Below, one piece after another: positions 25,858-45,051 of a stretch of 64,000 bases of DNA; position 1 is the first letter of the stretch, and each line of letters opens with the position of its first letter. The position numbers and the translations under genes are program-made. The stretch is from positions 16,542-80,541 of the forward strand of contig JAFNIQ010000001.1 of NCBI GenBank assembly GCA_017601395.1, read 5' to 3'. The notes beneath the pieces are model-generated. The model saw only the letters and a list, made by a program, of their open reading frames with translations, searched no databases and was not told the DNA's origin. The stretch comes from Candidatus Brockarchaeota archaeon. Its GTDB lineage: Archaea > Thermoproteota > EX4484-205 > JAAOZP01.

Positions 25858-25858
25858 T

Positions 25859-26098: not shown

Positions 26099-26171
26099 TA
26101 TTCCTCCGGCTAACGTAATGATTTAAAGCTGGCTATAAAAGGTTTCTAACAGAAAAGCGTTTAAGCATGCT

Positions 26172-28779: not shown

Positions 28780-30369
28780 TTGGGAAGCCAACGGGAAAAA
28801 GGGAAATTGTCCAGAGAAGCCTCTTCAAAAAGGCAGGATGGCGGAAAGAAAATAGTGTTAACCGCGTCTGCAGTGGAAATGAGCGATTTCAACCTGAACC
28901 CGTTCATAGCCTTTTCAGCAGGGTTCCCCCTGCCGTTTTCTAAGAGGCTCCTCAGGGAAAGGCTTTATCCTCCGCCACCGTTAAACGATGATGGAACCGT
29001 TAAGCACGCCCCCTACGGCTTGAGAAAAATAGAGTCTCTCCTTATAGACGAGTTTGGCGAGGAGAATGTTGCAACCGTTTACCCAACCATGCTTGAAATG
29101 TTCGTTGGGAAGGAAACAAGGGTTGTAGGGATTTCTTCCATGGATCCGTTGGGGATAGGCTTTGTAAGCAGGACCTACACGAGCCTTATCGGTATAGACG
29201 GTAAGCCCGTCACGAGAGTGGAGTTTGAAACACTTCTTTCCAACCCTGTTTTCAAGAAGTATAGGCCTAAAGTAGTTTTGGGCGGAAGCGGTGCTTGGCA
29301 GGTTGTCAAGACAGGGGTTCAGCAGAAGCTAGGGATAGACAGCGTAGTGATGGGCGAGGCTGAGGAGGATGTTGTAAACCTCTTCAGAAAAGCCTTGAAC
29401 GGTGAAGAGCTTCCGAAGCAGCTGGTGTGTAGCAGGCCTGAGCTTGAAAAAGTTCCGTGCATTAAGAAAGCATCCCTGTTCGGTGTTGTTGAAGTCACGC
29501 GGGGATGCGGAAGAGGATGTCAATTCTGCTCTCCGACGCTTAGACAAAGATACTCCTTTCCTCTGGAACACGTATTGAAAGAAGTTGACATAAACGCTAG
29601 AAGCGGAACCAGGATGATAACTCTTCAGACGGACGATATATTTCTGTATAAGGCGGATTCTAGTTTCACGCCGAACGGGGATGCGGTGTTTGAACTGGTC
29701 GACTCAGTAGCTAAAGTTAAAGGAGTAAAGTATATTCAGGTGGCGCACGCGGCTCTTACGCCCGTAGTCTATGATCATGGGCTTGTTGAAAAAATAGCGC
29801 CCACGCTCGTTGAGAAGTCCAGATGGACTTACTTGAACAATCAGAGGTATGCGACTTTCGAAATAGGTATTGAAACCGGGAGTGTCAGACTGATAGAGAA
29901 ATACATGAGGGGGAAGGTGCTGCCATACACGCCTGAACAGTGGCCGGATATTGTGGTTCAAGCTCTTGGGATACTTAACGACAACCAGATATATCCTTTA
30001 GCAACACTCGTAATGGGTCTTCCCACTGAAAACGAGGAGGACGTTACTGCAACCCTTGAGCTGCTCGACAGGTTGAAGAATAATAGGGTCTTCTTCGTCC
30101 CCCTGCTCTTCACATCTGAGGAGGATTGCATTTTAAACAGGGAGAACCATGCCGACTTGCATAGTTTATCAGAGCTTCACTGGGATGTTTTCTCAACGTG
30201 TTGGAGGCACAACGTGAAAACATGGAGGGGAAACGGCTTTCAACATTTGATCAGAATCGGAGGATTATTCGCCTACTTGGTTTACTACAGGCGGCTGCAC
30301 GGCCCCAAGGTTCTAAAACATATTCTAAAGGTTTCAGGTTGGGGTGAAGAACTGCAAGAGAGGTTCTAA
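28780..30369 (+). CDS. B12-binding-domain radical SAM protein
   Basis: N-terminal Rossmann-like B12-binding region (KKIVLTASAV…) and VTRGCGRGCQFCSP (CxxxCxxC). The exact start is uncertain. Confidence 0.75.
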   Translation: MGSQREKGKLSREASSKRQDGGKKIVLTASAVEMSDFNLNPFIAFSAGFPLPFSKRLLRERLYPPPPLNDDGTVKHAPYGLRKIESLLIDEFGEENVATVYPTMLEMFVGKETRVVGISSMDPLGIGFVSRTYTSLIGIDGKPVTRVEFETLLSNPVFKKYRPKVVLGGSGAWQVVKTGVQQKLGIDSVVMGEAEEDVVNLFRKALNGEELPKQLVCSRPELEKVPCIKKASLFGVVEVTRGCGRGCQFCSPTLRQRYSFPLEHVLKEVDINARSGTRMITLQTDDIFLYKADSSFTPNGDAVFELVDSVAKVKGVKYIQVAHAALTPVVYDHGLVEKIAPTLVEKSRWTYLNNQRYATFEIGIETGSVRLIEKYMRGKVLPYTPEQWPDIVVQALGILNDNQIYPLATLVMGLPTENEEDVTATLELLDRLKNNRVFFVPLLFTSEEDCILNRENHADLHSLSELHWDVFSTCWRHNVKTWRGNGFQHLIRIGGLFAYLVYYRRLHGPKVLKHILKVSGWGEELQERF

Positions 30370-30719
30370 GGGTCTGCAATCATATCTCTAAGCGCTTTAT
30401 CAACTATTCTCGCTATCTCGACTAGCCCAACCAGTATGCAGGGCACTCCCCTGAGCCTAGCCAAGTCAGCCGTCATCTGGTCCTGCGTGATGATTACGAG
30501 GCTGTTTCTAGCCGCGTGTTCAACTATTATCTCGTCCTCCGCTCCCTTTAAACCCACGTCGTCAACCGTCTGAGCGTCCCACCCAAGTGTTTTAAGAAAC
30601 GGCTTTAAACCGGAGTACATTTCGTCCAATAGTATCTTGACGTTTTTCACGAAGAGTATCTTGTTCAGGCTTTTCTTTAATCTTTTCTGTACTAAAGTTG
30701 AAAACAATCTTAAACGCAA
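30366..30719 (-). CDS. Mut7-C/DUF82-like (PIN-like) small protein. The true start is probably internal, at V/M near KILLDEM.
   Basis: KILLDEMYSGLKPFLKTLGWD…DEIIVEHAARNSLVIITQDQ…GVPCIL matches the Mut7-C RNase-domain pattern (LxDxMLGxLxRxLRxLGYD…DxxIL…A…R…LTRD). Confidence 0.5.
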   Translation of the reverse strand: MRLRLFSTLVQKRLKKSLNKILFVKNVKILLDEMYSGLKPFLKTLGWDAQTVDDVGLKGAEDEIIVEHAARNSLVIITQDQMTADLARLRGVPCILVGLVEIARIVDKALRDMIADP

Positions 30720-30745
30720 AAGTCTTATAAAAGAGAGGCTGCATT

Positions 30746-31879
30746 ATGATTCGGCGTCGGATGTGGGTTCTCAGAAGCGATGCGATAACCGTGTGGAACA
30801 ATAAGGATGTTCAGAAAAGGCTCTCATGGTATAGGGCTGTTATGAAAAACCTTAAACCAGCCAAATTCCTAATAGCTAAAAGCATCCCGGCACAGGTCGG
30901 GGTTAAGGATCTAGAGAACATGAAGGAGGAGGAGCTCTGGAGGCTTCATGAAAAGCTTAGTTTAGAGTTCAGGAGAATCCATGAGTCTGTGAAGACAGGT
31001 AAGGCTGGTGAGACCACCCCTACAGAAGTAAGCTTCCTAGATGTAAAGATAATGCTCTCCGAAAGACTCGTTGAACACTGCGAATTTTGCGAGAGAAGAT
31101 GCAGAGTGAACCGGAGGAGGGGGGAGCTGGGGTTCTGCAGAGTAGGGTATGTAAGCAGGGTTTCAACATGGTTCCACCACTTCGGGGAGGAGGGACCGTT
31201 AATAGGCGAGGGAGGCTCCGGAACAATATTCTTCGCAGGCTGCAACTTCGGGCCTTGCGTCTACTGTCAGAACTGGGATATCTCTTCAGACCCTGGGAAC
31301 GGGGGCGAGGTTAATCCGAGAACACTGGCGCTAATCAGCAGGAGGCTTAGCGCTGAGAATGCTGCAAACATAAACTACGTGGGGGGAGACCCGACGCCGA
31401 ATCTCCATACAATACTCTCATCCCTTAAACATTTGGATGTAAACATTCCGCAGCTCTGGAACAGCAACATGTATTGCAGCACTGAGGCTATGAGGCTTCT
31501 CGCTGAAGTCATAGACATATGGCTACCGGACTTCAAGTATGGCAGCGACGATTGCGCCAGAAGGCTTTCAAAGGTGGAAAAATATTTCGAAGTGGTGGCG
31601 AGAAACCACAGGATTGCCTACGAGAACGGCGATATGATAATAAGACACCTGGTTCTTCCTAACCATCTAGAGTGTTGCACCAAGCCTGTTTTAAAATGGA
31701 TATCTGAAAACACTCCTAACGTTCTCGTGAACATAATGGGCCAGTATCATCCGGATTACTTGGTGGCGAGAAACCCTGGAGCGTATCCAGATATCGCTAG
31801 AAGGCCTAGTGCGAGAGAGATGCAGGAAGCCTATGATTACGCGAGAAGGCTTAACATAGTTTTCGAACCCGTGTCCTAG
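30746..31879 (+). CDS. Radical SAM protein of the PflX-like (COG1313, PFL-activating-enzyme-related) family
   Basis: N-terminal CEFCERRCRVNRRRGELGFC Cys cluster. The GSGTIFFAGCNFGPCVYCQNWDIS block shows a Cx4Cx2C spacing. Length 377 aa. Confidence 0.7.
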   Translation: MIRRRMWVLRSDAITVWNNKDVQKRLSWYRAVMKNLKPAKFLIAKSIPAQVGVKDLENMKEEELWRLHEKLSLEFRRIHESVKTGKAGETTPTEVSFLDVKIMLSERLVEHCEFCERRCRVNRRRGELGFCRVGYVSRVSTWFHHFGEEGPLIGEGGSGTIFFAGCNFGPCVYCQNWDISSDPGNGGEVNPRTLALISRRLSAENAANINYVGGDPTPNLHTILSSLKHLDVNIPQLWNSNMYCSTEAMRLLAEVIDIWLPDFKYGSDDCARRLSKVEKYFEVVARNHRIAYENGDMIIRHLVLPNHLECCTKPVLKWISENTPNVLVNIMGQYHPDYLVARNPGAYPDIARRPSAREMQEAYDYARRLNIVFEPVS

Positions 31880-32802
31880 CTAACCCGGTTATCCCAATAT
31901 GGTTTTTTCAACATAATTGCCTCCATAAACCTCCTTTTTAAATCATCATCGCCGCCGCCTGAACGCATCAACCCCACTATGTCTACCAAATTATCGTTTC
32001 TCAACAAGCAGGGCTTCAGCCTCCCGTCGCAAGTAACCCTTAGCTTGTAGCAGTGGGAGCAGAAGTCAGGATTCCCAGTTGGCGAGACTATTTCGACTAG
32101 AACTGTCCTTCCGTTTCTGGGGAGCATGTAGATGGAGCGTTGTCCAGTGTAGTTGACAGTTTTCCCGGCTGATTTTGAGGAGATGGTTTTTTCAACATCC
32201 TTAAGGCTGACGTGAAACTCTTGGAAAACCTTCTCGCCACCCGGAATCGGCTGGAGCTCTATGAGCTGGAGAACAGCCCCAATGGAGCCAGCGTAATCCA
32301 GCATCTCTTCAACATCCTCCTCGTTAACCCCTTTCAGAACAACCATGTTTATCTTAACCGGGTTTAGGCCAGTCTCTAATGCGGCATTTATCCCTTTGAA
32401 AACCCTTGAAACATCCCCACCCCCAGTTATCCGGCTGTACTTTGAAGAATCGAGACTAGGAAGGTTAACGTTAACTCTTGCTAGTCCCGCATCCTTAAGG
32501 TCCCCAGCGTATTCCTCAAGGAGGACACCGTTTGTAACGAGCGAAACCTCGCTGACGAGCGGGGAGATCGCTTTCACCATGTCGACAACGTCTTCTCTAA
32601 CCAATGGTTCCCCACCCGTTATCTTAACAGTTTCAACGCCTGTGCTGCTAGCGACCTCGACGATTTTTCTAACCTCGTTTAGAGTCATGCTTCCCCTAGG
32701 AGGAGGGTTCCATTCCCTGTGGCAGAAGAAGCAATTAAGGTTGCAGTTATCCGTAACAGATATCCTGAGGTTTTTCAAGGGTCTGCCGGCCTGTTGAAAC
32801 AT
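31876..32802 (-). CDS. moaA: GTP 3',8-cyclase MoaA (molybdenum cofactor biosynthesis radical SAM)
   Basis: LRISVTDNCNLNCFFC (CxxxCxxC) near residue 20 and C-terminal auxiliary-cluster Cys (CSHCYKLRVTCDGRLKPC). Length 308 aa. Confidence 0.85.
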   Translation of the reverse strand: MFQQAGRPLKNLRISVTDNCNLNCFFCHREWNPPPRGSMTLNEVRKIVEVASSTGVETVKITGGEPLVREDVVDMVKAISPLVSEVSLVTNGVLLEEYAGDLKDAGLARVNVNLPSLDSSKYSRITGGGDVSRVFKGINAALETGLNPVKINMVVLKGVNEEDVEEMLDYAGSIGAVLQLIELQPIPGGEKVFQEFHVSLKDVEKTISSKSAGKTVNYTGQRSIYMLPRNGRTVLVEIVSPTGNPDFCSHCYKLRVTCDGRLKPCLLRNDNLVDIVGLMRSGGGDDDLKRRFMEAIMLKKPYWDNRVS

Positions 32803-32858: not shown

Positions 32859-34964
32859 ATGTTTAAGCTTTACAAAACGCCTCCTGAAAACGTCTTTAGT
32901 TTAAAAAAAGGATGGCCTAAGGATTTTTATACCCTAAAACTTTATAAGTTCGCAATAAGTATTTTATGTGGTGAAAAGAGTTTGAGTGAGACTAAAACGG
33001 TCTCCGTCATAGAAGAGTTAAAAGCAGGTTTTACCGTTAAGGCAATAATCCTTGCAATAGTCTTCGGCATTATAGGACTCTTCGCAAACATAGCTACATG
33101 GTGGGGCCTAGGGATAAGCTTGGAACCTGTTTTTGCAGGTAGGGTAGGGGCGCCAATATACCCCCCATACGGGCTCGTTTTTATACTGGTTCTTGTAAGC
33201 CTATTCATGAAGGCCCTGACAATCCAGGAGATTGCGGTGATCACTACAATAGCGTTCATAACTGCAGACAGCCCGTTCGTCATCGGCGCCTTCTTACAAT
33301 TCATATTTGCAGGAACCTACTTGGTTAAGACCAACCCGAACGTGGAGGCCCTGCTTAAGTATTACCCGCCGCTGTGGACCCCGGGCGACTATGACCTGAT
33401 CGCCCCAGCTTGGGCGGGAGGGGCAGCCGTACCATTGGGCAGGTTGCTCCCCTACCTAGCGTTCTGGATGATAATGATAATCATTTGGTGTCTAATGATG
33501 GTTTTCCAAGCCGCGTTAATCAGGCTGCAGCTGATTAAAAAAGAGAGGCTCCCGTTCCCAATGATGATTCCGATTAACGAGATGCTTTCACAGCATCAGA
33601 AAGGAACCTTTACGCAATACATGAAGAAGCTTCCGTTCATAGCAGGGATAATACTAGGATGCATAATAGGAATACTTGGGGCTTTAAACTATATTATTAA
33701 ATTCACGACAGTGTTCTTCGCATTCGGACAGTTCTACCAGCAATGGTTCGCCGACCTTATGAGCTCGATCTCTCAAAACACGATACAATCCTGGTGGATG
33801 TTCATACCCGCGGATGCTGCAATCATGTACCTTGCCCCCTTAGACATTCTTTCCTCAATAGTCATCTGGCTGTTCATCTTCCAAATTCTGTTCCCACTGG
33901 TCCTCGTCAACACTGGGGTGATAACGCCTAACACGAACCCGGCTGGTACAGGTCCCTTCCCATGGCTAAACTTCAGCTACTACTGGGCCCCGTTGGCGAT
34001 AGGCATCTGGACAATAGTCTTCGGCTACAAGACTTATGCTGAGAGCTTGAAGAAGAAGGAGTTTGCCCCGGGTGAGCTCCCCAATTCAATCGCATGGTAC
34101 GGCTTCGCAGCCACATGGCTTCTCTGGCTAATCCTGTGGGTCATATTCGGAGCAAACGTTCTCCCGTTGCTAGTGGGCTTCATCGTGTGGTTCCTGTATA
34201 CGACGGGTATGGTTGCTGTCTGCGGGGCAACAGGTACCTGGGTAGCTGGAGGAGACGCTGTTCCCGCGAGATTCTTAGCGTGGGGAGTAGGCACTGGAAT
34301 AGGCCTGTTCCCAGCAAGCGGTGCGGCTGCTAAAACTCAATCCGCGTGGGCAACGATGGCCGGCGTCAGCATAACTGCCAGCATGGGTGGAGTGATTCAT
34401 CAGAACACGCATTCCGCTTGGGCCTACACGTCAACCTACACGATGGTTGAACCAGCTAAGGTGAAGGAAACAGACATTCTAAAGTCGCACATCCTAGGAA
34501 TACTTATAACGGTGCTTATCGGTGTTCCAGTTGCCGTCTACATAATCTACGGGACTGGAATAGGCCAGTTGAAGGCCTGGGGCCTCGGCAGCGGTGCAAA
34601 CATCACCGGCTTCCAAGTGCCGTGGGTAGTGGCTGATTCAGCACCGCCTGCGGGCTTCCACTGGTGGATGTTCCCACTGGCTATAGTCGTGGTCGGCATC
34701 TTGTTCTTCCTGAGAGCTAGGTTCGCATGGTTCTTCTTCAGCCCGTATGCGTTATTCTTCTACTCTGGAATGTGGCTGATAAACGCCGGGGTAGCGTGGA
34801 TACTTAAACTCATAACGCTTAAAGTGTTCGGAGCAAAGGCCTACGAAGAGGTTGGAGTACCCGTAGCAATAGGCTTCATGGTTGGCGTCACTCTCATGGC
34901 CACTATAATCATGGGAGTGAACTCTGCTACCGGAGGAATATCCGTAGGACCGACAGGCTATTAG
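32859..34964 (+). CDS. Hypothetical giant polytopic membrane protein (701 aa, more than 14 TM), paralogue A; family not assigned
   Basis: Hydrophobic helices run the full length. It shares an E-R-L-P-F-P…I motif with the 639-aa protein at 39638..41557. Confidence 0.6.
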   Translation: MFKLYKTPPENVFSLKKGWPKDFYTLKLYKFAISILCGEKSLSETKTVSVIEELKAGFTVKAIILAIVFGIIGLFANIATWWGLGISLEPVFAGRVGAPIYPPYGLVFILVLVSLFMKALTIQEIAVITTIAFITADSPFVIGAFLQFIFAGTYLVKTNPNVEALLKYYPPLWTPGDYDLIAPAWAGGAAVPLGRLLPYLAFWMIMIIIWCLMMVFQAALIRLQLIKKERLPFPMMIPINEMLSQHQKGTFTQYMKKLPFIAGIILGCIIGILGALNYIIKFTTVFFAFGQFYQQWFADLMSSISQNTIQSWWMFIPADAAIMYLAPLDILSSIVIWLFIFQILFPLVLVNTGVITPNTNPAGTGPFPWLNFSYYWAPLAIGIWTIVFGYKTYAESLKKKEFAPGELPNSIAWYGFAATWLLWLILWVIFGANVLPLLVGFIVWFLYTTGMVAVCGATGTWVAGGDAVPARFLAWGVGTGIGLFPASGAAAKTQSAWATMAGVSITASMGGVIHQNTHSAWAYTSTYTMVEPAKVKETDILKSHILGILITVLIGVPVAVYIIYGTGIGQLKAWGLGSGANITGFQVPWVVADSAPPAGFHWWMFPLAIVVVGILFFLRARFAWFFFSPYALFFYSGMWLINAGVAWILKLITLKVFGAKAYEEVGVPVAIGFMVGVTLMATIIMGVNSATGGISVGPTGY

Positions 34965-34975
34965 ATCCAAAACCT

Positions 34976-34991
34976 CTTTTTTTGTTTTTTT
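34976..34991 (+). terminator. Oligo-T tract (ctttttttgttttttt) 12 nt after the stop of the 701-aa membrane protein; archaeal-type intrinsic terminator candidate
   Basis: A T-rich run of about 15 nt directly downstream of the TAG at 34962-34964. Confidence 0.4.
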
Positions 34992-35120
34992 GAGCTAAAG
35001 GCTTAGTTGCTTCCATTCGCCTTAAGCCTCCCTATCGACCCTTGAGGGCATGGGCTTTAAAAACATTAGGAGGTTTTAACGACGTAAAGTTTAAATCAAT
35101 CTTGATGGAGTTCCACGTTA

Positions 35121-38100
35121 ATGATAGTGGTTCGACGAAAGCATTTGCTTGTTATTGTGTTTTTAATGATGCTTGTTGCCCCTCTCATAGTAATACAGGG
35201 GAATCGGGAGGCCGTTGAAGAAAAAACTTGGTTAAACCAGGAAGCCCCATTGGTTTCAGCAGACAGGATAAGGGACTATGTAGCGTTGTTTTCGTCAATA
35301 CAGTCAAGGTTCACAGGCTATCCTGGGTCCCTAGAAGCAGCCCAAATCATAATGGACAAGTTTAACGAATCTGGGCTGAAAGTTAGCCTTTTCGAATACA
35401 CGGTGCTGGTTCCGTATGACTCAGGCTCATACATGAAAGTGGGCGGCAGAATGATTAAGGCCTATGGGCTCTACCCTAATGTCGTAGCCACGGGTTTGAA
35501 AAAGGCTTCCGGAAGGCTTGTCTACGCTGGTCACGGTACTCCGGAGGAGCTTAGGGGACTTAACGTGAATGGTAACATAGTCCTCCTCGAGTTTAACTCA
35601 GGGTCTGCATGGGTAGACATGGTTAAGCTTGGTGCATCTGGAATCGTTTTCCTGGAGGACGGTGACACGAATCGCTTTGAAGCATTGAGAAAAATCTCTT
35701 CTGTCCCACTGGATACTCCAAGAATATATGTAGTGGGCCAGGAAGCGTCTCAGCTCAGAGAAATCGCTAGAAATAATCCGGATGCAGAGCTTTTTAACGG
35801 TATGGAGTGGAGAGAAGTTGAGGCTGTTAACGTGATTGGGGAAATGAAGGGTGTCGAAGACCCGTCTAAAGTAATCATTATAACGGTGAACTATGACTCC
35901 GGGTCGATTGTCCCAGGGATCGCTCCGGGGGCTGATGAAGCCATAGGTATTTCTGTCATGCTCGAATTCATCAGATCTTTGAAACAGCAGGGCCTCTCGC
36001 CGAGATACACAGTGCTTTTTATAGCGATGTCTGGACATTGGCAGGCCCTAGCCGGTGCTAGAAGCTTCGTGGAACAATTCTACTTTAACAATTCCGCTAT
36101 AGGCAGGGAAGTCTTCCCGTATCTCGTCATAGACATTAAGATTAGCTCAGGAAGCCCGCACTTAAACCTTGTTTACAGCGGCATGATGTACTCCATTAAT
36201 ACTCAGTATATTGCAAGCAGGTTCAGAGACCTCCGAATATTTTTTGCAAATTCAATTAAATCTTTCATTAACTCTTTCCCAAGCTATGGCAAAAAGGTTT
36301 TGACCAGCAACCTATACCCCGGCCTCTACGGCATCGCGTATGACTCGGCCAGTCCCGGTTTTCAGAAGGGCCTTGCCTTCAAGCATATTCTCGAAATGGA
36401 GCCTTTTGAGCTGGCTAACAGCATTGGGCTCGGAATAATTACTTTCGACGACTTCAGGTATCGCGTTTTCACCCCGTCTGACAGGCTGGATTTCATCGAT
36501 TTCCAGAACGTCATACCTCAAGCACAGCTAACATTCCAGATCCTGTTCGACCTGTTGAATGCTCCGGTTGAAGAATGGTATCCAGGCAGTTGGGAGGGTT
36601 TAAGACCGTTGAGAATGGGTGAAACCTACACTGGAGTTGGTTTCACTGTGTTAAAGGTTGAAGTAGTTGAATACGACCCTACTACGCCAGGCCTATACAG
36701 CCCGGTTTCAAACGCTTTCGTCACGGTGGGGAGCACGTTGGACCAATTCACGCTGATGTTTTCCAAATCGGATTCCTCAGGCTTCGCAGTGTTCAGGGGT
36801 TTAAGGCCATATCCTGAGGCGACGACTGCGTTGCAAACCCCTATTCAGAGTTACGTGATCGACGAGGAGGGGAGAATAATCTATGCTCCAGACAGGGGAC
36901 AGCATGGTGCCGGAACATATCCTTCAAGCGTAACGATAGTCTCACCTGAACAATTCACGAGGAACGTTGTGTTTAAATGCGGGAGCGCCGTCATGTTCGA
37001 TTTAACCGACCCGGACACTCTGCAGGCTGCAGTCTCTCCAAGCTCGATGTTTGGAACCACGAATGCTTATTCGGCGCAACTCAGGAATTACGGTGGCTAC
37101 GAGACCCCGCTAACGATAAGCGTGATGGTGATGCAGATACCTGGATACTCTATTCTAGACTCGTTCGGCTACGAGTTCGACCCCATTCTGTCGGTTGCAC
37201 AGGTTTACGCCCCGCCCCGCATCAGGTTCGGCTTCGTTGTTAAAAGCACGTCTATGGCTAAAACGGTTGCAGTCTATACGAATGTGACTCTGCAGAACCA
37301 GGATGGGTACGGGTATTATTTGGGTAAAGAGGGGGACAGGCTGCTCGTAAAGGGTGGAATACCCGGCATGTTCATGGAGATGTTGACATTAGCATATGGC
37401 AGGTATTTGGCTCAAGCAGACATTCAAGTCCTGGACCCAAAGACGATGGAGAATTTGAATTATGCGATAATGTTTAACCAGACGCTTCTTCAGACGGCTT
37501 CGAAAAAGGATTACAGCGGGTTCTTGACGAGCGCTTTAATGGCTTGGGGGTTCTCCAGCAAGGCTTACCAAAGCTCTTTGAGCGTTGTCCGCGACGCGGT
37601 TACGAGCATAATTCTCGTATTCGCTTTAGCAATACCCTTCATCCTTCTGTTTTCCTCCCTTGTTTACAATTTGAGCAGCGGCTTCAGAAGCGTCGCCCTT
37701 ACTCTTGCTGTGGCGCTGTCCGTGGCGTTGCTTTTAACAGTATTCCACCCGGGTTTTGGGTTAGCGGTAAACGTGCCTGCAATATTCATAGGGACACTGA
37801 TAGTTGCCCTGGTTATTCCAGTGATGTTCTTCCTGTTCTCCAACTTCTCCACAGGGCTTTCCAGGTTGAGGAGAGAAGTTCTTGGTGCACACTTCCTTGA
37901 GAGAAGCGGATTCGACGTTTCGTTTTCAGCCGTATCCATAGGAATAGGCAACTTGAAGAAGCGTAAGTTTAGAACAGTATTAACGATGCTGTGCATAGTA
38001 ATCATAAGTTTCTCGCTTTCGTCTCTGACTTCCGTGACGGAGATAAGGGCTTTAAGAGTTACCCCGACGCCCACCGAGGTTACTTGCAACGGAGTGCTGC

Positions 38101-39638
38101 TGAGAACAGCTAACTTCGCCCCGTTAAACAGGAAGTTGATCGACCTAGTGTCAACCTACATATCTGGCAAGACACTTTATGCTCCGAGGTACTGGGTTTA
38201 TCTTCCTTCCACTCCTGGAGAGGGGACTGCTGGCACAATAGTGATATCCTCTGAGAAAAGCAAGGCTTTGATCTACGCGGCTGTCGGAATAAGCCCTGTA
38301 GAGTTGAAAGCATCTTTCAAGCAGTTTGAAAAAATACTTTTAGAAGGATCCATGTTTAAAGAAGAAGAGGTTTTCTCAGCATTATTGCCGAACAGTCTTG
38401 CGGAAAGCCTGGAGGTGAAGACAGGCGAATATGTCTGGGTTAACGGCTTCCGCTTAACAGTAGCAGGCATACTTAACACGACTGCAATTCTAGCATATGT
38501 GAAGGATTCAGATGGTTTCGTGGACGTCCTGCCCATGGACACGTATATTCTTTCGAACGAGAGAACTCCTCCCCGTGCTGAGGCAGCGTTGAGCCCAGGA
38601 TCCGTAATATTCGTGCCCGCCGGCCTGGTTGAACTGATTCCGGAGGCATGCTTGACAAGCGTTTTCATACCGGCAGACGGGATGGTTTTCGAGGAACTTT
38701 ACGAGAAATGCGGCGAGGTTTTCTCAGCTTTCGAAGGTTTAAACATTTATCTGACGTATAACGGCACTGTATACCGGTTCTCCAAGGAGAACGTTATCTC
38801 GCTATTCGGCTTCCAGTTCATTCTAATACCCATGGTGATCGCGGGGCTGATAACTATGTCGACGATTCTAGGCGGAGTCATGGAGAGAATACGGGAGGGC
38901 TACATATATAGCAGTCTAGGCCTAGCACCGGTTCAAGTAGGCTTAATGTTCTTCGGGGAGAACATCATATACGCTATCGTAGGCTCGATGACGGGCTATC
39001 TCGGCGGAATCTCAGCCTCATACTTGACGAGGAAAATAGGCTTGATAAACCTCCCTGTGAACTACACGTCGTCATTCGTCATGATAGCTGTCGGTCTGGT
39101 GATAGTGCTGGTTCTGGCAGCGTCGCTCTACCCGTTCTACAGAGTCTCCGTCACAGTAACCCCGTCTCTAGAGAGGAAGTGGCGTCTCCAGACTAAGCCG
39201 AAGGGAGACTCGTGGGACATACCGATACCTTTCCGTATAAAGGAGGATGATAGGGCTGCAGGAATGGCTGTTTTCCTCCATGAGTATCTCTGGAACAAGA
39301 GGATAGAGAGGGCAGGAGTCTTCTCCATTGAAAACGTTGAGGTCAGCAAGATAGAGTCTGGAATTAGTGTTAAGTCAAGAGTATGGCTGGCGCCATTCGA
39401 GCAGAACATAAAGCAGGATATGAACATAGTGATATTGAAGAGCAAGACGGAGCAGAATTTCCTTATTTTAATGAATCTAACCAGGGTGTCCGGACCCTAC
39501 GACTCATGGGTCAGGTTCAACTATCCCTTTATTGATGAGATAAGGAAGCAGATGCTGATATGGAACGTTCTCAATCCAGAGGAGCGGGAGAAATACATAC
39601 GTATGGCTAGGGATCGTAGCCTGGTAGGTGAGAAATAA
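35121..39638 (+). CDS. Giant membrane protein (1505 aa): signal/anchor, M28-peptidase-like (possibly non-catalytic) ectodomain, large beta-rich middle region, and an FtsX-like permease module (TM plus extracytoplasmic domain plus 3 TM)
   Basis: M28-like blocks (NVIGEMKGVEDPSKVIIITVNYDSGS…GADEAIGISVMLEF). An FtsX-type N-terminal TM (LKKRKFRTVLTMLCIVIISFSLS). FtsX C-terminal helices (…VIAGLITMSTILGGVMERIREGYIYSSLGLAPVQVGLMFFGENIIYAIVG…). Confidence 0.7.
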   Translation: MIVVRRKHLLVIVFLMMLVAPLIVIQGNREAVEEKTWLNQEAPLVSADRIRDYVALFSSIQSRFTGYPGSLEAAQIIMDKFNESGLKVSLFEYTVLVPYDSGSYMKVGGRMIKAYGLYPNVVATGLKKASGRLVYAGHGTPEELRGLNVNGNIVLLEFNSGSAWVDMVKLGASGIVFLEDGDTNRFEALRKISSVPLDTPRIYVVGQEASQLREIARNNPDAELFNGMEWREVEAVNVIGEMKGVEDPSKVIIITVNYDSGSIVPGIAPGADEAIGISVMLEFIRSLKQQGLSPRYTVLFIAMSGHWQALAGARSFVEQFYFNNSAIGREVFPYLVIDIKISSGSPHLNLVYSGMMYSINTQYIASRFRDLRIFFANSIKSFINSFPSYGKKVLTSNLYPGLYGIAYDSASPGFQKGLAFKHILEMEPFELANSIGLGIITFDDFRYRVFTPSDRLDFIDFQNVIPQAQLTFQILFDLLNAPVEEWYPGSWEGLRPLRMGETYTGVGFTVLKVEVVEYDPTTPGLYSPVSNAFVTVGSTLDQFTLMFSKSDSSGFAVFRGLRPYPEATTALQTPIQSYVIDEEGRIIYAPDRGQHGAGTYPSSVTIVSPEQFTRNVVFKCGSAVMFDLTDPDTLQAAVSPSSMFGTTNAYSAQLRNYGGYETPLTISVMVMQIPGYSILDSFGYEFDPILSVAQVYAPPRIRFGFVVKSTSMAKTVAVYTNVTLQNQDGYGYYLGKEGDRLLVKGGIPGMFMEMLTLAYGRYLAQADIQVLDPKTMENLNYAIMFNQTLLQTASKKDYSGFLTSALMAWGFSSKAYQSSLSVVRDAVTSIILVFALAIPFILLFSSLVYNLSSGFRSVALTLAVALSVALLLTVFHPGFGLAVNVPAIFIGTLIVALVIPVMFFLFSNFSTGLSRLRREVLGAHFLERSGFDVSFSAVSIGIGNLKKRKFRTVLTMLCIVIISFSLSSLTSVTEIRALRVTPTPTEVTCNGVLLRTANFAPLNRKLIDLVSTYISGKTLYAPRYWVYLPSTPGEGTAGTIVISSEKSKALIYAAVGISPVELKASFKQFEKILLEGSMFKEEEVFSALLPNSLAESLEVKTGEYVWVNGFRLTVAGILNTTAILAYVKDSDGFVDVLPMDTYILSNERTPPRAEAALSPGSVIFVPAGLVELIPEACLTSVFIPADGMVFEELYEKCGEVFSAFEGLNIYLTYNGTVYRFSKENVISLFGFQFILIPMVIAGLITMSTILGGVMERIREGYIYSSLGLAPVQVGLMFFGENIIYAIVGSMTGYLGGISASYLTRKIGLINLPVNYTSSFVMIAVGLVIVLVLAASLYPFYRVSVTVTPSLERKWRLQTKPKGDSWDIPIPFRIKEDDRAAGMAVFLHEYLWNKRIERAGVFSIENVEVSKIESGISVKSRVWLAPFEQNIKQDMNIVILKSKTEQNFLILMNLTRVSGPYDSWVRFNYPFIDEIRKQMLIWNVLNPEEREKYIRMARDRSLVGEK

Positions 39639-41557
39639 TGGAAGAGGCTGCACGTGAAAAAGAAGCCTTCATCCCCGGGCTGACAATCGTATCGGTCTCC
39701 GCAGTATTGTTCGGGCTTGTGGTAATCGTGCCCGCAATAATCTATTTAGGCTGGGCTGTCGGCTCTTTAGGTGGAACCGAGAGGTTCATCCCGGTTTTCG
39801 TCACAATCCTCCTATTCACCGAGGCGGGGAGGCTCGTTAAGAGGTATATAACATCGCAAGAGGCTTACATAATATACTTCATGCTTCAAGCCATAGCCCT
39901 ATGGTTCGTCGGCGGAGGAATGTTCGGCGACTTCCTTATAAGGTATTACTACAGGTCCGCCCCTTACACTATCCTATATGGTATAGCTGAAAAGCTTCCC
40001 ACATGGTATGTCCCTGAGCTCGGGAGCTACGGCCCACTCCACAGGACTTTCCTCTCCCCAGACTGGGTGATTCCAATATCGATTTCTCTAGCTGTTAACG
40101 TTTGCGTGCTGATGATAGATTACGGTGTTTCTTTCATAACAAACATGCTCTACATAGAGATAGAGAAGCTCCCGTTCCCCGTCGCACCCATAGACTACCA
40201 GGCGATTTCAACCCTTACTGAGAGAACACCTGAGAAAATAATGTACTTCTCTTTCGCCGCTGTGATAAGCTTCATCTACGAGTTCGCCATCTACGGGATT
40301 CCAAACATAACCTCGATTTTCCTAGGCAGGGCTATAACCGTCATACCGTATCCCTGGGTGGACTTAACCACGGGGATTGAAAGAATCCTGCCGGGAGCAG
40401 TTTTTGCAGTCGGAACCGATATTGCTCAATACATGGTGGGCTGGCTTATCCCGTTTAACGCCGCGGTATGGATGTTCATCGGGTCGGTGGCAGTCTGGGT
40501 TTTCGGAAACTCTATAGCGCTCAGGATTGACCATCCCTACTTCAGCATGTGGCAGAGAGAATGGACTTACGGCGCGTCAATCCAATGGTGGTGGCAGAGA
40601 GCAATCTACGACCTGTGGGCAAGTCCACAAGTAGGTTTAACACTCGGGATCGCGCTTGGAATACTTGCTGTAGGAGCCAAAAACATTGCGCGAGCAATCC
40701 TCTCCCTCAGACATCTTTCGGCAGAGCAGCTTAAAACATCATACTTGCCTTTCAGCTGGATAGTTGCTTTAATCGCCGCCGGGTCTATAGGCGGGTTGCT
40801 TGTTTCAGTCTCCCTTGCCCCAGAACTATGGTTCGTCTGGGTGGTGACCTGGACGATAGTTCCGTTTATTCAAGGTATTCTGACAGCCAGGGCTACTGCT
40901 GAAACCGGGTTATCTGTCACCATACCCTACATTAGGGAAGCGTTCTTCGTTTCTTTCACAAGGCCTGGAGACGTGGTCCCGTGGGTGGTTCCGACGCATG
41001 TGACAAGCAGCGCCGGGATAATTACGCACAGGGTCTACGTGGCTAAGCTCCTGAAAGTCAGGCCCCTAGACTACTACAAGGCCTACCTCATATTCTTCAT
41101 AGTGGCTATTCTCCTATCCCTGCTGTACGTTTCAATATTCTGGGCGATGACGCCCATACCTTCTGCCTTCTACCCGTACGCCAGCTACTCCTGGCCTATT
41201 TCAGCCCTCTACTTCTCCCTATGGGTCTCTAGGTCGATCGAGATTTTCAAGGTGGACGTGATAGCTATCTCAAGCGTCTTATCCTTCATAATGGTCGTCG
41301 TCTCCTCCCGTTTCCCAACGCAATACTTCTCCCCAATAGGCTTCCTATACGGTTTTCAAAACATTCCCGCTTACACGCTTCCACCATTGATCGGAGCCCT
41401 GATCGGAAAATGGCTTGAGAGGAGAATGGGTAAGGATAAATGGGTTGTGCGGAGAGGAGTGATAATCGCCGGAACATTCTGCGGGATCGCGCTTGCAGTA
41501 GCAGCCGCTGTCGCCATCACTATAATGGGGAGAGCGATAACAGCTAAACCATTCTAA
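39638..41557 (+). CDS. Hypothetical giant polytopic membrane protein (639 aa), paralogue B. The start overlaps the upstream stop (TAATG).
   Basis: About 14 TM helices. It shares an E-K-L-P-F-P-V-A-P-I motif and overall architecture with the protein at 32859..34964. Confidence 0.6.
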   Translation: MEEAAREKEAFIPGLTIVSVSAVLFGLVVIVPAIIYLGWAVGSLGGTERFIPVFVTILLFTEAGRLVKRYITSQEAYIIYFMLQAIALWFVGGGMFGDFLIRYYYRSAPYTILYGIAEKLPTWYVPELGSYGPLHRTFLSPDWVIPISISLAVNVCVLMIDYGVSFITNMLYIEIEKLPFPVAPIDYQAISTLTERTPEKIMYFSFAAVISFIYEFAIYGIPNITSIFLGRAITVIPYPWVDLTTGIERILPGAVFAVGTDIAQYMVGWLIPFNAAVWMFIGSVAVWVFGNSIALRIDHPYFSMWQREWTYGASIQWWWQRAIYDLWASPQVGLTLGIALGILAVGAKNIARAILSLRHLSAEQLKTSYLPFSWIVALIAAGSIGGLLVSVSLAPELWFVWVVTWTIVPFIQGILTARATAETGLSVTIPYIREAFFVSFTRPGDVVPWVVPTHVTSSAGIITHRVYVAKLLKVRPLDYYKAYLIFFIVAILLSLLYVSIFWAMTPIPSAFYPYASYSWPISALYFSLWVSRSIEIFKVDVIAISSVLSFIMVVVSSRFPTQYFSPIGFLYGFQNIPAYTLPPLIGALIGKWLERRMGKDKWVVRRGVIIAGTFCGIALAVAAAVAITIMGRAITAKPF

Positions 41558-41571: not shown

Positions 41572-42660
41572 TTATTTCCTTTTTAGCGCGCCTATCTCGG
41601 AAGTATAGAGAATTAGTCGGTCTACCTCCGTGCTCCATCCAAGCTCCCTGGTGTGGTTCGGATCCACCGCCTCAACCCATATTAGCCACCTGTCGCCCCT
41701 TATCCTGTCGAATAAGGCTTGAGCATAAGTGTGAATCGGGTACTCGCCGTGTTCGAAACGTGAAAGCGGTGTCCAAACTTTTTCGAAAATGGTTTCTAAA
41801 TTAAGCCTTCCTAAATCAATACTGTAGGCGACAAAATGTTTGGTAAGCGCGTTCCCCCTTATCACATCCAGCGTTTTCGTGCCGATGAAAATCAGACCCG
41901 TTGAGCCTGGGATTATTGAGCCGCTCAGCAGGAAGAAGTCCGGTTGACTCTTACCGTCAACAGTAGGCACTCCAAGCTTAACCCAGTTCTTCCCATCGCT
42001 ACCGACAGCCAACGCCGTCTTCACGATGCTTGTGCCCGCCCTCCTAGCCTTGTAGAGGCAGAAGTATCTGCCATCAACTATGTCTATAGTAGCGTCTCTC
42101 GATTCTCCGCTGTCGTATTCCTCGCTTCCTCTGATTACGAAGCCTTCAGGCTCCCATGGGCCGGAAGGATCTTCCGAAGTCAGTAGAAAGGTTTCCCACC
42201 TGCTCTCCGTGAAAGCCTCTCCCTCGACAACCAAGTTCTCCCTTGAAACATTCAGCGAAAGATAAAGATGGTATCTCCCACTCAAGGGGTCTTTTAAAAG
42301 CTGCTGGTTCTCAATGCTTAGAATCTGGTTTTTCGTCATCTCGCTCAACTCCTCCTTAGTGATCCATGTTACCAGATCATAATTCTCACCATCCTTCGAC
42401 CTGTATATTTCAACAGCGTACCCCCTCCTCATCTCCTTCATCTCTCTCGGCCTACTCGTCAACCAGTATTCACTATTCTCCTCATCGATCCACATTTTTC
42501 CAGCGCCGCACCAAGAGCCGGGGTTGAAATTGGGAGGGTCGAGGAGCACCTTCATAAACCTTCTTTTGGAGAAGATGGCTTGAGGTGGGTATAGGCCACA
42601 CCAGCTCATAACAACGTTGAGAAAAGAAATGTTATTTAAGGCTTTCGCCATTGTTTTCAC
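41572..42660 (-). CDS. Hypothetical protein, possibly a beta-propeller glycosidase-like fold (GH43/GH32/GH130-type?). The start may be the internal Met (MKVLLDPP…).
   Basis: ORF of 362 aa with no TM. Repeated beta-strand-rich segments. It sits among glycoside hydrolase genes. No firm family motif was recognised. Confidence 0.35.
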   Translation of the reverse strand: MKTMAKALNNISFLNVVMSWCGLYPPQAIFSKRRFMKVLLDPPNFNPGSWCGAGKMWIDEENSEYWLTSRPREMKEMRRGYAVEIYRSKDGENYDLVTWITKEELSEMTKNQILSIENQQLLKDPLSGRYHLYLSLNVSRENLVVEGEAFTESRWETFLLTSEDPSGPWEPEGFVIRGSEEYDSGESRDATIDIVDGRYFCLYKARRAGTSIVKTALAVGSDGKNWVKLGVPTVDGKSQPDFFLLSGSIIPGSTGLIFIGTKTLDVIRGNALTKHFVAYSIDLGRLNLETIFEKVWTPLSRFEHGEYPIHTYAQALFDRIRGDRWLIWVEAVDPNHTRELGWSTEVDRLILYTSEIGALKRK

Positions 42661-42695
42661 TTTCTATATTGCGGATCGTAGTCTTTTCCACTCAT

Positions 42696-43810
42696 CTATG
42701 AAAGCCTGAGCATTCTACCTGGCCACTGCTCGCGGATAGAGGGCACTGCGTGAAGAATGAAGCCTCTTCGGCCGAAAACTTGGAAAGCATTCTGAACTGC
42801 TTTACGCACAGTCTCTGGCTTCCCCTGGCCTATGTGGACGGGCGCGCTAACACCTCCCCCAGATACGCTTTCTACCGCCAAGCTTCTGAGCCAGGATCTT
42901 CATGTCTTGGTTTCCAAGAGCCGGCTCGATGCCGTCATAAGCGTCGAAGGGGAGTTCAGCCAAATAGTCTAATATGGGCATCACGCCTGTGCAAACCGTG
43001 TAGCTGCAAACCCTGTCGGCGGAATGTACCTGCTCAGCCTCCTCTCGCAACCTTTCCCCCTGAAAGGTTTGTAGCTGCCTAGGCTCCAGAAATCCGTGGT
43101 CTCGTAGAAGCCGTTGCGGCGCACAATATCCACGCCATTTTCGAGAGCTAACTCCAATTGGTGCGTTGTTGTCTCATGCTCAATTTCCAAGAATCATTCT
43201 ATTACCTTGGGGTGTTTAATTGAAAGGTAGATACTCCTTGTGCCAAAAAGCAGGAAAGCCGCTGTTAGCTCCATGTCGATTGTAGCCATAGTGGCTGACC
43301 CTAACTGTTCGACCAAGGCTCTAGCCTTCACCATTTTTTCCTGAAAGGCTGCAACCTCCCGCCTTCTTGGGGGCATGTGCACATAAGCCCAGCGCTCAAC
43401 GTCCTCCATGTTTTCAAGCCAAGGCTTAACGAAGATGGAGACGTTGAAGTCTGAGAGTAGCGGTATTTCCATGCCATGTGGCCAATCAGGGGTTCTCCTA
43501 ACAGCGGCGGTAAGAGGCCCGGCGGGAGTCATGATCTCCTTGTGAAGAATGGGATAGAGCTCACGCAGGTTCTCCCAAACCCTAAAAGATACTTCAGGAC
43601 GCTGGCCCGCTGGAACACCCAAGGGTATAACAGGGTCGATGCCCCGCTCCTCCACTTGGAACCGGAGTGCTTGCTCACCATATGGGTCTTGCCGTTGCCA
43701 GTCCCTATACCTACCAGGCTCAACCTGGGACTCATGAAAAAAGTTGAGAGCGGCACGTAGTCCACATCCCCTCGACGCATAGCTACTATTACGCGTTCAC
43801 GAGGGTTCAT
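42696..43810 (-). pseudogene. Disrupted uroporphyrinogen-decarboxylase-family (MtaA/CmuA-like) gene, split over at least 4 reading frames
   Basis: Minus-strand fragments 43529..43810 (MNPRERVIVAMRRGDVDYVPL…), 43194..43655, 42981..43190, 42847..43050 and 42696..42881 align colinearly with successive segments of the intact paralogue at 47364..48461. One example is …CTGVMPILDYLAELPFDAYDGIEPALGNQDMKILAQKLGG… against TDGNVNLLIPKLIEAGFTALQPMEVKAGMDVVELKEKYG. Confidence 0.55.
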
Positions 43811-43920
43811 CCATTTCTACCTAATTTACATCCAGCGACTTGCTTACATATATGTTTTTGAATTATGTTTTAATCAACCTTTAACGGATATTCAAAAGTG
43901 GCATCGTATTAAACTCAGAT

Positions 43921-45051
43921 TTAGAATATGTCTTCCGCGTAGGCTACACCTGCCGCATGTATGCCCCATTCTCGATATTTTAAGCATGTGGCTGAGTAAT
44001 AAGCCGTATAGATGGTTCCGTCATCAAGCTGGACACTACTTGGGTATCCGCAGTCAGCGTCTGTCGCATAAGAGACTAAGGCGGCTCTCCTGTTAAACAT
44101 CCATGATCGGCCGCCGTCGAGGCTTATCACTGCATGAACCCCGTAAGGCACCCTCCGGTGTCCAAAGGTTAGCAAAACCTTCCCGCTCTTAAGGTAACAA
44201 AGGTCCCCGGGGTGTTCACCGCCAACAGTCACCTGTTTAGGCTCAGACCATGTGTAACCCATGTCTCGAGAGCGACTGATGGCAACGCATTCGCCGCCAC
44301 CCTGAGCATGAGGTCCGCGGAGGGCTGCCAACAAGTCTCCATCGGGTAATTGTAGAAGAGCAGTTTCATTATATCCTTTAGCGACGATGGTTAAATCCTT
44401 CCATGTGAAACCATTGTCTTCGGAGCGTAGAATATAGCTGGTCTCTATCGAGCCTTCTACAGTATATTCTTGAGAGTAAACAGACATAAGAATAGTTCCA
44501 TCATCTGTCTGAAGCATTCTCCCATAGGGTGAAACCGCCCCTTTAAACGGAAACTCCAGCGGCTCGGGCTTACTCCACTCCCTACCACCGTTGGTCGACC
44601 TCGTTACGAACATTTGCCACCTCATCCCATTCCTCTTCCACAACCCATTCTCATAACCCCAGACTCTTACAAAGGCAACCAGCAGAGTACCGTCCTTCAA
44701 TTGACATAAGGCCGGATTCCTATCATCAGTCTGAGAAACGGTTACAATTCTTGGCATTGTCCATGTCTTACCCCCGTCTTTAGATAACGAGAGCTCTAAG
44801 CGGCCTCGTTGACCAACATGGTAATCCCCCATGCGGAAGACAACTGCTAGGTTTCCGTCACGGAGTTTAGTCAAAACCGGGAAATATCCACCCATAGGAG
44901 TTATAAGATATCTTCTCACCCGCTTGAGGGAACCAACCATCGCCTCATCGCAAAACTGCATTCCATACTTGAACTCCTCATCGGCTTTCATGTTTTTCCA
45001 CGGCCAACCGTTTTTCCGTATGCGGGCGTTCTTATTAATTTTGATGTTCAT
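43921..45051 (-). CDS. BNR/Asp-box repeat beta-propeller protein (sialidase/exo-alpha-sialidase-like glycosidase fold)
   Basis: Five Asp-box motifs (SKDGGKTW, STNGGREW, SEDNGFTW, SRDMGYTW, SLDGGRSW) spaced about 60 aa apart. Confidence 0.7.
   Translation of the reverse strand: MNIKINKNARIRKNGWPWKNMKADEEFKYGMQFCDEAMVGSLKRVRRYLITPMGGYFPVLTKLRDGNLAVVFRMGDYHVGQRGRLELSLSKDGGKTWTMPRIVTVSQTDDRNPALCQLKDGTLLVAFVRVWGYENGLWKRNGMRWQMFVTRSTNGGREWSKPEPLEFPFKGAVSPYGRMLQTDDGTILMSVYSQEYTVEGSIETSYILRSEDNGFTWKDLTIVAKGYNETALLQLPDGDLLAALRGPHAQGGGECVAISRSRDMGYTWSEPKQVTVGGEHPGDLCYLKSGKVLLTFGHRRVPYGVHAVISLDGGRSWMFNRRAALVSYATDADCGYPSSVQLDDGTIYTAYYSATCLKYREWGIHAAGVAYAEDIF

Follow-up and report, generated by a model that had tools for sequence, protein, structure and literature searches.

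A catalytically degenerate M28 peptidase fold fused to an FtsX-type permease and genetically linked to OPT-like transporters in a Candidatus Brockarchaeota archaeon

[quoted passage not shown] The M28 aminopeptidases with a PA domain inserted in the peptidase fold, known from Aneurinibacillus AM-1 (2EK8), Bacillus subtilis (BSAP/YwaD, 6HC6) and Pseudomonas (PaAP, 8AC7), are secreted. In the OPT/YSL transporter family (TC 2.A.67; PF03169) those members that have been characterised import oligopeptides or iron-siderophores by cation coupling, and in prokaryotes the OPT genes are frequently found beside, or fused with, peptidase genes (PMC3061005). Here we describe a locus at which elements of all three meet. 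It lies in a stretch of 64,000 nucleotides, hereafter the window, from a Candidatus Brockarchaeota archaeon (assembly GCA_017601395.1, contig JAFNIQ010000001.1, positions 16,542 to 80,541 of the forward strand), and encodes a protein of 1505 aa, hereafter the fusion protein, in which an M28 peptidase-like ectodomain is joined to an FtsX-type permease.

The fusion gene was identified by an open reading frame (ORF) scan of the window as an ATG-to-stop frame at 35121..39638 on the forward strand. Its product matches two Pfam domains above their cut-offs: Peptidase_M28 (PF04389) at aa 237-319 (E=2e-8; 34.6 bits, the cut-off being 21.3; limited to positions 1-79 of the 193 in the profile) and FtsX (PF02687) at aa 1233-1343 (E=4.6e-11, 43.2 bits against a cut-off of 25.5). 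A search of NCBIfam gave sub-threshold matches only, and Pfam searches with the middle beta-region and the tail separately gave no meaningful match; a SecB match at E=0.2 in these sub-region searches was dismissed as noise. The anatomy of the fusion protein, and the association of its gene with OPT-like genes, we regard as near certain. The parts of the gene are as follows.

35121..39638 (+): whole gene, pseudo-M28/PA ectodomain, FtsX-type permease and cytoplasmic tail (ORF; Pfam M28 and FtsX; full-length homologs at 24-97% identity)
35145..35201 (+): putative N-terminal signal anchor or signal peptide, aa 9-27 (hydropathy peak 2.75, preceded by the basic MIVVRRKH)
35208..35465 (+): M28 fold, first segment, about aa 30-115, boundaries approximate (the profile alignment to 2ek8/6hc6 begins here)
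35466..35825 (+): PA (apical) domain inside the M28 fold, about aa 116-235, boundaries approximate (2ek8/6hc6 alignment; Foldseek matches to TfR/GCPII)
35826..36620 (+): M28 core with degenerate metal site, about aa 236-500 (Pfam; alignments to AAP, 2ek8 and 6hc6; family columns)
36621..37355 (+): beta-rich middle ectodomain, about aa 501-745 (AlphaFold secondary structure, predicted local distance difference test, pLDDT, mostly above 80 except at aa 635-664)
37356..37571 (+): bundle of helices next to the membrane, about aa 746-817 (AlphaFold helices, 720-787 as numbered in the model)
37572..37862 (+): three additional transmembrane (TM) helices forming a cluster, aa 830-848, 857-875 and 888-906 (hydropathy; AlphaFold helices)
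37863..38045 (+): basic pre-TM1 helix in a cytoplasmic loop (aa 915-948), then FtsX TM1 (aa 949-975) (hydropathy; AlphaFold; profile alignment to MacB pre-TM1/TM1)
38046..38786 (+): FtsX/MacB-type extracytoplasmic domain between TM1 and TM2, aa 976-1222
38787..39158 (+): FtsX TM2-TM4, aa 1223-1346 (TM2-TM3 loop with the coupling-helix motif)
39159..39635 (+): cytoplasmic C-terminal tail, aa 1347-1505

The ectodomain thus comprises about 790 aa (about aa 30-815), made up of the PA-bearing M28 fold, the beta-rich region and a stalk of helices. Placing the basic N-terminus on the inside puts both large soluble regions outside and the tail inside, which is the topology that a MacB-type unit requires. 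A first-pass annotation, made from the DNA letters alone, had already proposed an M28-type domain fused to an FtsX-like module, and both assignments hold. The TM1 string that it quoted, KKRKFRTVLTMLCIVIISFSLS (KKRKFRTVLTML...), is present at aa 945-966, and the three C-terminal FtsX helices and the C-terminal domain of about 160 aa are present as well. The TM cluster that it noted exists, with three helices over about 97 aa (aa 818-914) instead of about 80 aa, and the FtsX extracytoplasmic domain measures about 250 aa instead of about 290 aa. Features beyond that annotation are the N-terminal anchor, the PA insertion, and some 315 aa of beta-rich and helical ectodomain between the M28 fold and the membrane.

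A word-indexed search returned 51 relatives, mostly from metagenome-assembled genomes (MAGs) of Thermoproteota and one from a Phycisphaerae bacterium, nearly all of about 1500 aa with both Pfam domains and with identities down to 24%. When the ectodomain was searched with phmmer against 1.84 billion representative sequences, 514 clusters were found at E<=1e-30, and the top 150 of these are nearly all 1430-1620 aa long. Since the same architecture recurs in hundreds of sequence clusters the fusion is not due to chance. The family is large, and it is present in Thermoproteota/Brockarchaeota-like archaea and in some bacteria; among named genomes, a Candidatus Brockarchaeota MAG (93%) and other Thermoproteota MAGs come closest. 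Its members carry automatic database names only, for example 'FtsX-like permease family protein' or 'M28 family peptidase'.

The Pfam match covers less than half of the M28 profile; structure and family profile extend it to the complete fold. The AlphaFold model of the ectodomain (pLDDT 87.5, predicted template modelling score, pTM, 0.88) matched 2ek8 in Foldseek with E=1e-25, and also BSAP (6hc6), TfR1, GCPII and PaAP, the matches ranging from E=1e-25 to 1e-21 over 470-580 columns. The family profile matched 2ek8 with E=3.9e-25 and 6hc6 with E=1.4e-20. Since the alignment starts close to the N-terminus, spans the PA insertion and continues into the M28 core, a complete M28 fold with an apical PA domain is present. 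In line with this, PF02225 (PA domain) is recorded for the homologs P0030 and P0034. The first M28 segment contains a conserved S-R-x-T-G-Y-P-G, in which R63, G66 and G69 are each conserved in at least 94%.

The metal site was mapped through phmmer and hmmsearch alignments to the Aeromonas aminopeptidase AAP, 2ek8 and 6hc6, the best sequence match in the PDB being 2anp, the E151H variant of AAP. The residues of the window protein, and the counts over 179 full-length family members, are listed by position.

Position 257 (AAP His97): Asn in the window protein, lost; His 106, Tyr 47, Asn 17 in the family
Position 259 (AAP Asp99): Asp, kept; Asp in 179/179
Position 272 (AAP bridging Asp117): Asp, kept; Asp or Glu in 130
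Position 306 (AAP general-base Glu151): His, replaced; His 153, Tyr 14, Phe 7, with Glu not among the residues recorded
Position 307 (AAP ligand Glu152): Trp, lost; Trp 120, never Asp or Glu
Position 340 (AAP Asp179): Lys, lost by family alignment; Asp or Glu 140, Lys 15
Position 450 (AAP His256): Phe, lost, from a motif-based mapping (xTPxDT against HTxxDT)

The window protein retains one of the five co-catalytic zinc ligands of M28 enzymes, the bridging Asp (D272), and the general-base Glu is replaced by H306. The first-pass annotation was thus right that the ligands are replaced overall, with the general base and all but one of the five ligand positions changed. Its reading of NYDS (aa 257-260) in place of H-x-D-S is borne out for the His (N257), the following Asp being kept as D259, and MSGHWQ (aa 303-308) does occupy the place of the Glu-Glu pair, H306 and W307 being the equivalents of Glu151 and Glu152. 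On the other hand, GADEAIG (aa 270-276) does not mark a lost ligand as had been supposed: the bridging Asp is intact, and the changes there concern the following residue and a one-residue deletion. In the clade of the window protein (N/S257, K340) two of the three Zn2 ligands are lost besides those of Zn1, whereas 92 of the 179 members keep a Zn2-like His/acid/acid triad; besides this clade, its loss concerns only a few others.

A search of the PDB with the C-terminal M28 segment (aa 385-490) found nothing. Among the columns of aa 348-558 there is none in which even 15% of the 179 sequences have His, and the last His ligand is thus absent whatever the register of the alignment. No member has the canonical H..E..H ligand set (0/179). 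Because both Zn1-specific ligands and the Glu general base are missing in every family member examined, the M28 domain cannot, to judge from its sequence, be a canonical co-catalytic zinc aminopeptidase. Measured by ligands and general base, which define an active M28 enzyme by function, the N-terminal half does not qualify as one.

The old catalytic centre is occupied by a conserved A-x-S-G-H-W-Q-[AG]-L-A-G-A-R-x-F-V-E (G305 95%, H306 85%, G312 98%, R314 85%), within which S-G-H-W-Q shows 67-95% conservation per position, and in distant homologs no part of the ectodomain is better conserved than the PA domain (36.8% identity). On the strength of this replacement motif, and of the conservation of the PA domain, we argue for a pocket whose function would be retained but changed, and not merely lost.

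Compared with the PA-domain M28 aminopeptidases, the N-terminal half has the same fold and the same order of PA within M28, and shares with them the Asp of the HxD type (D259) and the bridging Asp (D272). It differs in that the Zn1 Glu is exchanged for Trp, the Zn1 His for Phe and the general-base Glu for His, with the window protein lacking the Zn2 His and Asp as well. In contrast to those secreted enzymes it is joined to a membrane module of eight TM helices and carries about 315 aa of extra ectodomain. More similar in kind are TfR1, nicastrin and nicalin, all detected by sequence profile and TfR1 also by the fold search, in which an M28 fold without metal ligands (with a PA/apical domain in TfR) sits on a membrane protein and serves as a binding module; nicastrin and nicalin are moreover subunits of multi-pass membrane complexes. 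The likeness to transferrin receptor and PSMA proposed in the first pass therefore stands for TfR but not for PSMA/GCPII, and because the latter is an active enzyme the proper non-catalytic analogues are TfR, nicastrin and nicalin. These three are eukaryotic single-pass proteins, whereas the fusion protein is prokaryotic, is built on a MacB/FtsX-type permease, and has its own S-G-H-W-Q motif. No evidence was found that the inactivation of the M28 fold shares common descent with that in TfR1, nicastrin or nicalin.

The C-terminal half is a genuine MacB/FtsX-type permease. It has the four-TM unit with a large Porter/Sabre (MacB_PCD)-type extracytoplasmic domain between TM1 and TM2, and the structural matches of its confident AlphaFold model were YtrF (16.0), HrtB (14.5), FtsX (13.8), LolC (13.5), the periplasmic domain of MacB (13.3) and YbbP (12.5). 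The TM2-TM3 loop contains the coupling-helix motif E-R-x-R-E-x-x-I-Y-S-S-L-G-L-x-P, in which E1255 and R1256 are nearly invariant and G1267, L1268 and P1270 invariant, and a short helix is modelled by AlphaFold within this loop (aa 1257-1265). Four-TM fold, Porter/Sabre-like domain and coupling-helix motif are thus shared with the type VII ABC systems. The fusion protein departs from these in lacking an ATPase, whether fused or co-encoded, and in having additional TM helices (one plus three), an N-terminal ectodomain of 790 aa, and a helix-grip-like tail of 160 aa; nor is any described type VII ABC member known to be constantly linked, by its gene, to secondary transporters of the OPT type.

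The tail (aa 1347-1505) is predicted to adopt an alpha+beta fold of the helix-grip/TBP-like kind. It has no Walker motifs and is not a nucleotide-binding domain (NBD). A PDB sequence search with the tail gave nothing, and a homology search with the tail alone gave two fragments only. Similarly, a family hidden Markov model (HMM) of the three-TM cluster had no match outside the family. Paralogous FtsX proteins of about 987 aa are encoded in the fusion-gene clusters of two distant loci (L003:16490-19453 and L009:17405-20374, both on the reverse strand). They follow the same plan of anchor, ectodomain, three TM helices, FtsX four-TM unit and a tail of about 160 aa, with an ectodomain of just about 300 aa in which no M28 domain was detected. 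HMMs of the tail and three-TM cluster of the fusion family did not match them. These paralogs may heterodimerise with the fusion protein.

Two genes for multi-TM proteins flank the fusion gene and complete a module of three.

32859..34964 (+): partner 1, multi-TM DUF6785(/DUF6784) protein, upstream of the fusion gene (PF20581, E=4e-14)
39638..41557 (+): partner 2, multi-TM protein of 639 aa and probable divergent OPT/YSL-family transporter, downstream of the fusion gene

The ATG of partner 2 overlaps the stop codon of the fusion gene (TAATG). The window copy of partner 2 is too divergent to match Pfam directly, but it aligns over its full length (32% identity, E=2e-101) with a protein of locus L003 that scores against PF03169 (OPT) with E=8e-12, a match spanning positions 120-615 of the 623 in the profile. 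PF03169 is found in many homologs of partner 2, and NCBI gives two of the homologs the name 'OPT/YSL family transporter'. A remote place in the OPT superfamily is probable for the DUF6785/DUF6784 protein: in hhalign its profile matched the OPT-like set with a probability of 84.6% (E=6.8e-6, 505 columns), with a shared E-[KR]-L-P-F-P motif. BLASTP between the two flanking proteins gave nothing significant, the link being by profile-profile comparison only, and PDB searches with the OPT-like and DUF6785 profiles gave nothing. Both neighbours of the fusion gene probably belong, or are remotely related, to the OPT/YSL family. Their partner here is a dead peptidase fold on an FtsX permease and not an active cytoplasmic peptidase.

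The linkage was followed in a synteny sample of 20 loci, several of them closely related; a genome scan with a close alignment of 8 sequences had returned 12 archaeal loci. A DUF6785 gene lies near the fusion gene in 19 of the 20. All-against-all clustering of seven independent loci gave exactly three families common to all seven, DUF6785/84, the fusion and the OPT-like protein, and in a check of 17 loci DUF6785 was found in 17 and the OPT-like gene in 16, the exception being a contig that ends before the position of the OPT-like gene. Starting in reverse from OPT-like homologs (26-50% identity, one of them bacterial), the M28-FtsX fusion was found immediately upstream in three of three cases. 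A Pfam tally of 115 other neighbour proteins revealed no further recurrent family. Since gene order and strand of the module vary in the distant lineages L003, L007, L008 and L009, the linkage appears to be held by selection and not by frozen synteny.

Several observations concern the module itself. One MAG (binchicken_co124_248) has two diverged copies (L013 and L021), and both encode fusion proteins that share 58-60% identity with that of the window. Of the three products the fusion protein evolves fastest: at L011 it is 92.8% identical to that of the window, against 96.7% for DUF6785 and 98.9% for the OPT-like protein, and at L018 the corresponding identities are 43.8%, 56.0% and 60.6%. When L010-L021 are compared with the window, the ectodomain of the fusion protein diverges faster than its membrane half. 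By inspection, the 157-nt spacer at 34965..35120 has an oligo-T run directly after the DUF6785 stop codon and a TTTAAAT about 27 nt upstream of the fusion ATG; it may contain an archaeal terminator and a TATA box for a leaderless transcript, in which case the fusion and OPT-like genes would form one unit apart from DUF6785. The DUF6785 ORF is called at 701 aa in the window as compared to 660 aa in most archaeal loci, and the true start is probably internal, near codon 42, with TTG as a possible start codon.

The first-pass annotation had advised looking for an FtsE-like ATPase, and none was found that is co-conserved with the fusion gene. No ORF with Walker A and LSGGQ motifs adjoins the fusion gene in the window, where five ABC-ATPase-like ORFs sit elsewhere. 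A scan of 17 loci found ABC-type ATPase genes within 10 kb in 3 only, at varying positions; ABC_tran accounts for 4 of the 115 neighbour proteins, again at variable positions, and no ABC ATPase is conserved with the fusion gene across the 20 loci. The system thus lacks the cognate ATPase, fused or adjoining, of a complete type VII ABC transporter. The only MacB-class ATPase gene of the window (56259..56945) has its own adjacent permease, the two forming a reverse-strand pair with the FtsX/MacB_PCD gene at 54980..56257, and it is a possible but unproven trans partner of the fusion protein. The end of that permease gene is overlapped by the start of a gene for a 467-aa rhomboid-family protein (53581..54987, reverse strand).

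Taking gene neighbourhood together with the analogy to other non-catalytic M28 folds, we propose that the fusion protein is a non-catalytic surface receptor or scaffold subunit of an OPT-type uptake complex driven by an ion gradient, a reading to which we give a probability of roughly 0.4. The PA-capped pseudo-peptidase pocket would capture an oligopeptide-like ligand at the cell surface, as the corresponding folds of TfR, nicastrin and nicalin serve in binding, and would present it to the two OPT-like permeases for import. The FtsX module and the tail would in this case not form an ATP-driven pump, but would serve as a platform in the membrane or as a relay of conformational changes. A bolder form of the proposal, which we consider doubtful, is that an ATPase-free MacB/FtsX relay with a dead M28/PA capture domain and a helix-grip sensor or anchor tail feeds or gates the paired ion-coupled OPT permeases, amounting to a new kind of binding-protein-dependent secondary transporter.

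A number of observations weigh against this proposal. Half of the family keeps the His/Asp/Asp half-site together with H306, and the E151H variant of AAP, which has been crystallised (2anp), reportedly retains some activity; residual or alternative catalysis is therefore possible in some members. The mapping of F450 to His256 is based on a motif and not on a direct alignment, albeit the His census makes the conclusion independent of alignment. The link between DUF6785 and OPT consists of one profile-profile match at 85% probability from small alignments. Genomic neighbours are more often carbohydrate-active than peptide-related, and the ligand may not be a peptide. Finally, the TM2-TM3 coupling-helix motif, which docks the ATPase in known type VII ABC systems, is strongly conserved, so that a trans-encoded ATPase for the fusion protein is possible; the nearest MacB-type ATPase gene in the window lies about 16.6 kb from the fusion gene, and at L024 an FtsX gene (341 aa) and two ABC_tran genes stand directly downstream of the module (L024:11325-14519). 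The module at L024 consists of DUF6785, a fusion gene (1804 aa) and an OPT-like gene (723 aa), and it is the only locus with such ATPase neighbours; some lineages may pair the module with an ATPase.

The alternative that survives best, albeit unlikely in our view, is that the fusion protein is a type VII ABC mechanotransmitter, on whose coupling helix a trans-encoded ATPase of the MacB, LolD or FtsE type docks. ATP hydrolysis would then move the FtsX extracytoplasmic domain and the ectodomain, either to extract or expel a substrate of the outer leaflet or to switch between binding states, and the OPT proteins would be downstream users or unrelated. FtsEX with EnvC, whose LytM domain is catalytically inactive, would be a precedent. 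The FtsX fold with its conserved E-R-x-R-E...L-G-L-x-P loop motif is what such a protein would have, and all solved relatives (YtrEF, HrtBA, FtsEX, LolCDE, MacB, YbbAP and BceAB) use an ATPase. In well-studied type VII systems, however, the ATPase gene adjoins the permease gene, whereas no ATPase gene is co-conserved here and those within 10 kb are few among the 20 loci and variable in position. The FtsX and ABC_tran genes that follow the module at L024 would fit such a pairing, as would the MacB-type ATPase gene of the window, but the latter already has an adjacent permease. Furthermore, the 160-aa tail follows directly on TM4, where an NBD would sit, and the strict linkage to OPT-like genes would be left unexplained.

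It is more doubtful still that the system serves the use of carbohydrates or glycoconjugates, with the PA domain and beta-rich ectodomain binding glycans or glycopeptides that glycosidases encoded nearby set free, for import through the OPT-like permeases. Brockarchaeota have been described as having many carbohydrate-degrading enzymes (PMC8065059). The window contains GH2, GH43-like, BNR, GH4, GH106-like and CBM96 genes; at other loci the genes nearby include a DUF6259 gene that weakly matches GHL6 and overlaps the fusion-gene stop codon (L003), CBM4_9, GH42 and GH3 genes (L008), a GH63-like gene (L009), three GFO/IDH/MocA genes with a GH116 (L022) and an FGGY kinase (L001). No single carbohydrate family recurs among these neighbours, though, and in genomes so rich in carbohydrate-active enzymes the adjacency may be background. 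Such genes are also missing next to the module at the bacterial loci L005 and L023, and M28 and PA folds are not known to bind glycans. The characterised OPT substrates, moreover, are peptides and metal chelates (PMC3061005).

A non-canonical hydrolase is improbable, and even more so for the window protein itself. A mononuclear metal would be held by His257, Asp272 and Asp340, with H306 as general base, and the enzyme would trim extracellular peptides for import by OPT. That OPT genes associate with peptidase genes has precedent (PMC3061005). Among the 179 members the His, acidic, acidic positions are kept in 92 and H306 in 153, and the best PDB sequence match is the E151H variant of AAP, 2anp. 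The triad is nevertheless broken in the window protein (N257, K340), and the half-site that is kept elsewhere corresponds to Zn2, whereas it is Zn1 that suffices for catalysis in AAP. The equivalents of Glu152 and His256 are missing in all members. The triad positions vary freely (H/Y/N at 257; D/E/K/Q at 340) while S-G-H-W-Q is fixed, which fits binding better than metal catalysis.

That the fusion protein is a stand-alone envelope protein beside OPT genes by inherited order, as shared ancestry could make it among close relatives (L010-L015), or that the ORF is an assembly or fusion artefact, is very improbable, since the association lasts at 24-30% identity in archaea and bacteria with rearranged order and strand (L003, L007, L008, L009), is recovered from the OPT side and includes a stop/start codon overlap, and since the protein is recovered at the same length, about 1500 aa, from hundreds of independent assemblies.

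Other genes in the window were recorded as follows. The carbohydrate-active genes occupy the stretches 4879..10638, 26172..28643, 41572..45051 and 50050..51420, and comprise CBM96, GH106-like, GH2 beta-mannosidase-like, GH43-like (weak), BNR/sialidase-like and GH4 genes. Just upstream of the module, at 24491..32802, are MoCF_biosynth and MoaA-like radical-SAM (31876..32802) genes, with two further radical-SAM genes at 28780..30369 and 30746..31879; these molybdenum-cofactor and radical-SAM genes are not conserved at other loci. A regulator gene of the DUF7347/ArsR helix-turn-helix type is located within a few kb of the module both in the window (45189..46037, reverse strand) and at L003 (L003:5061-5495, reverse strand), where it adjoins an ABC ATPase gene. 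Rfam and tRNA scans of the window gave nothing.

While the folds of the fusion protein are familiar, the architecture is undescribed and widespread, and the gene partnership is unexpected. We found no paper on the M28-FtsX fusion, on DUF6785/DUF6784 (PF20580/PF20581) or on an association of FtsX with OPT proteins, and the description of Brockarchaeota (PMC8065059) makes no mention of the fusion protein. The first-pass view that the fusion had not been described thus stands, but the fusion occurs beyond this genome as well, in at least 514 clusters. The OPT-like clade of partner 2 has no characterised prokaryotic member.

Surveys of "extracellular peptidases" in sediment and hot-spring archaea that rely on MEROPS or Pfam would count the fusion protein as an M28 peptidase, which, from the residues at its metal site, it almost certainly is not. 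It offers a prokaryotic case of an M28 fold that has lost catalysis and gained a conserved motif, in parallel to the eukaryotic TfR, nicastrin and nicalin. An ATPase-free branch of the MacB/FtsX superfamily tied to secondary transporters would widen the known roles of this fold, and if the bolder form of the proposal is true, the type VII ABC fold would here be put to an ATP-independent use for the first time, and OPT transporters would have their first known accessory subunit. The OPT transporters of prokaryotes have hardly been characterised, and an accessory protein that constantly accompanies them would provide a handle on their substrates and mechanism.

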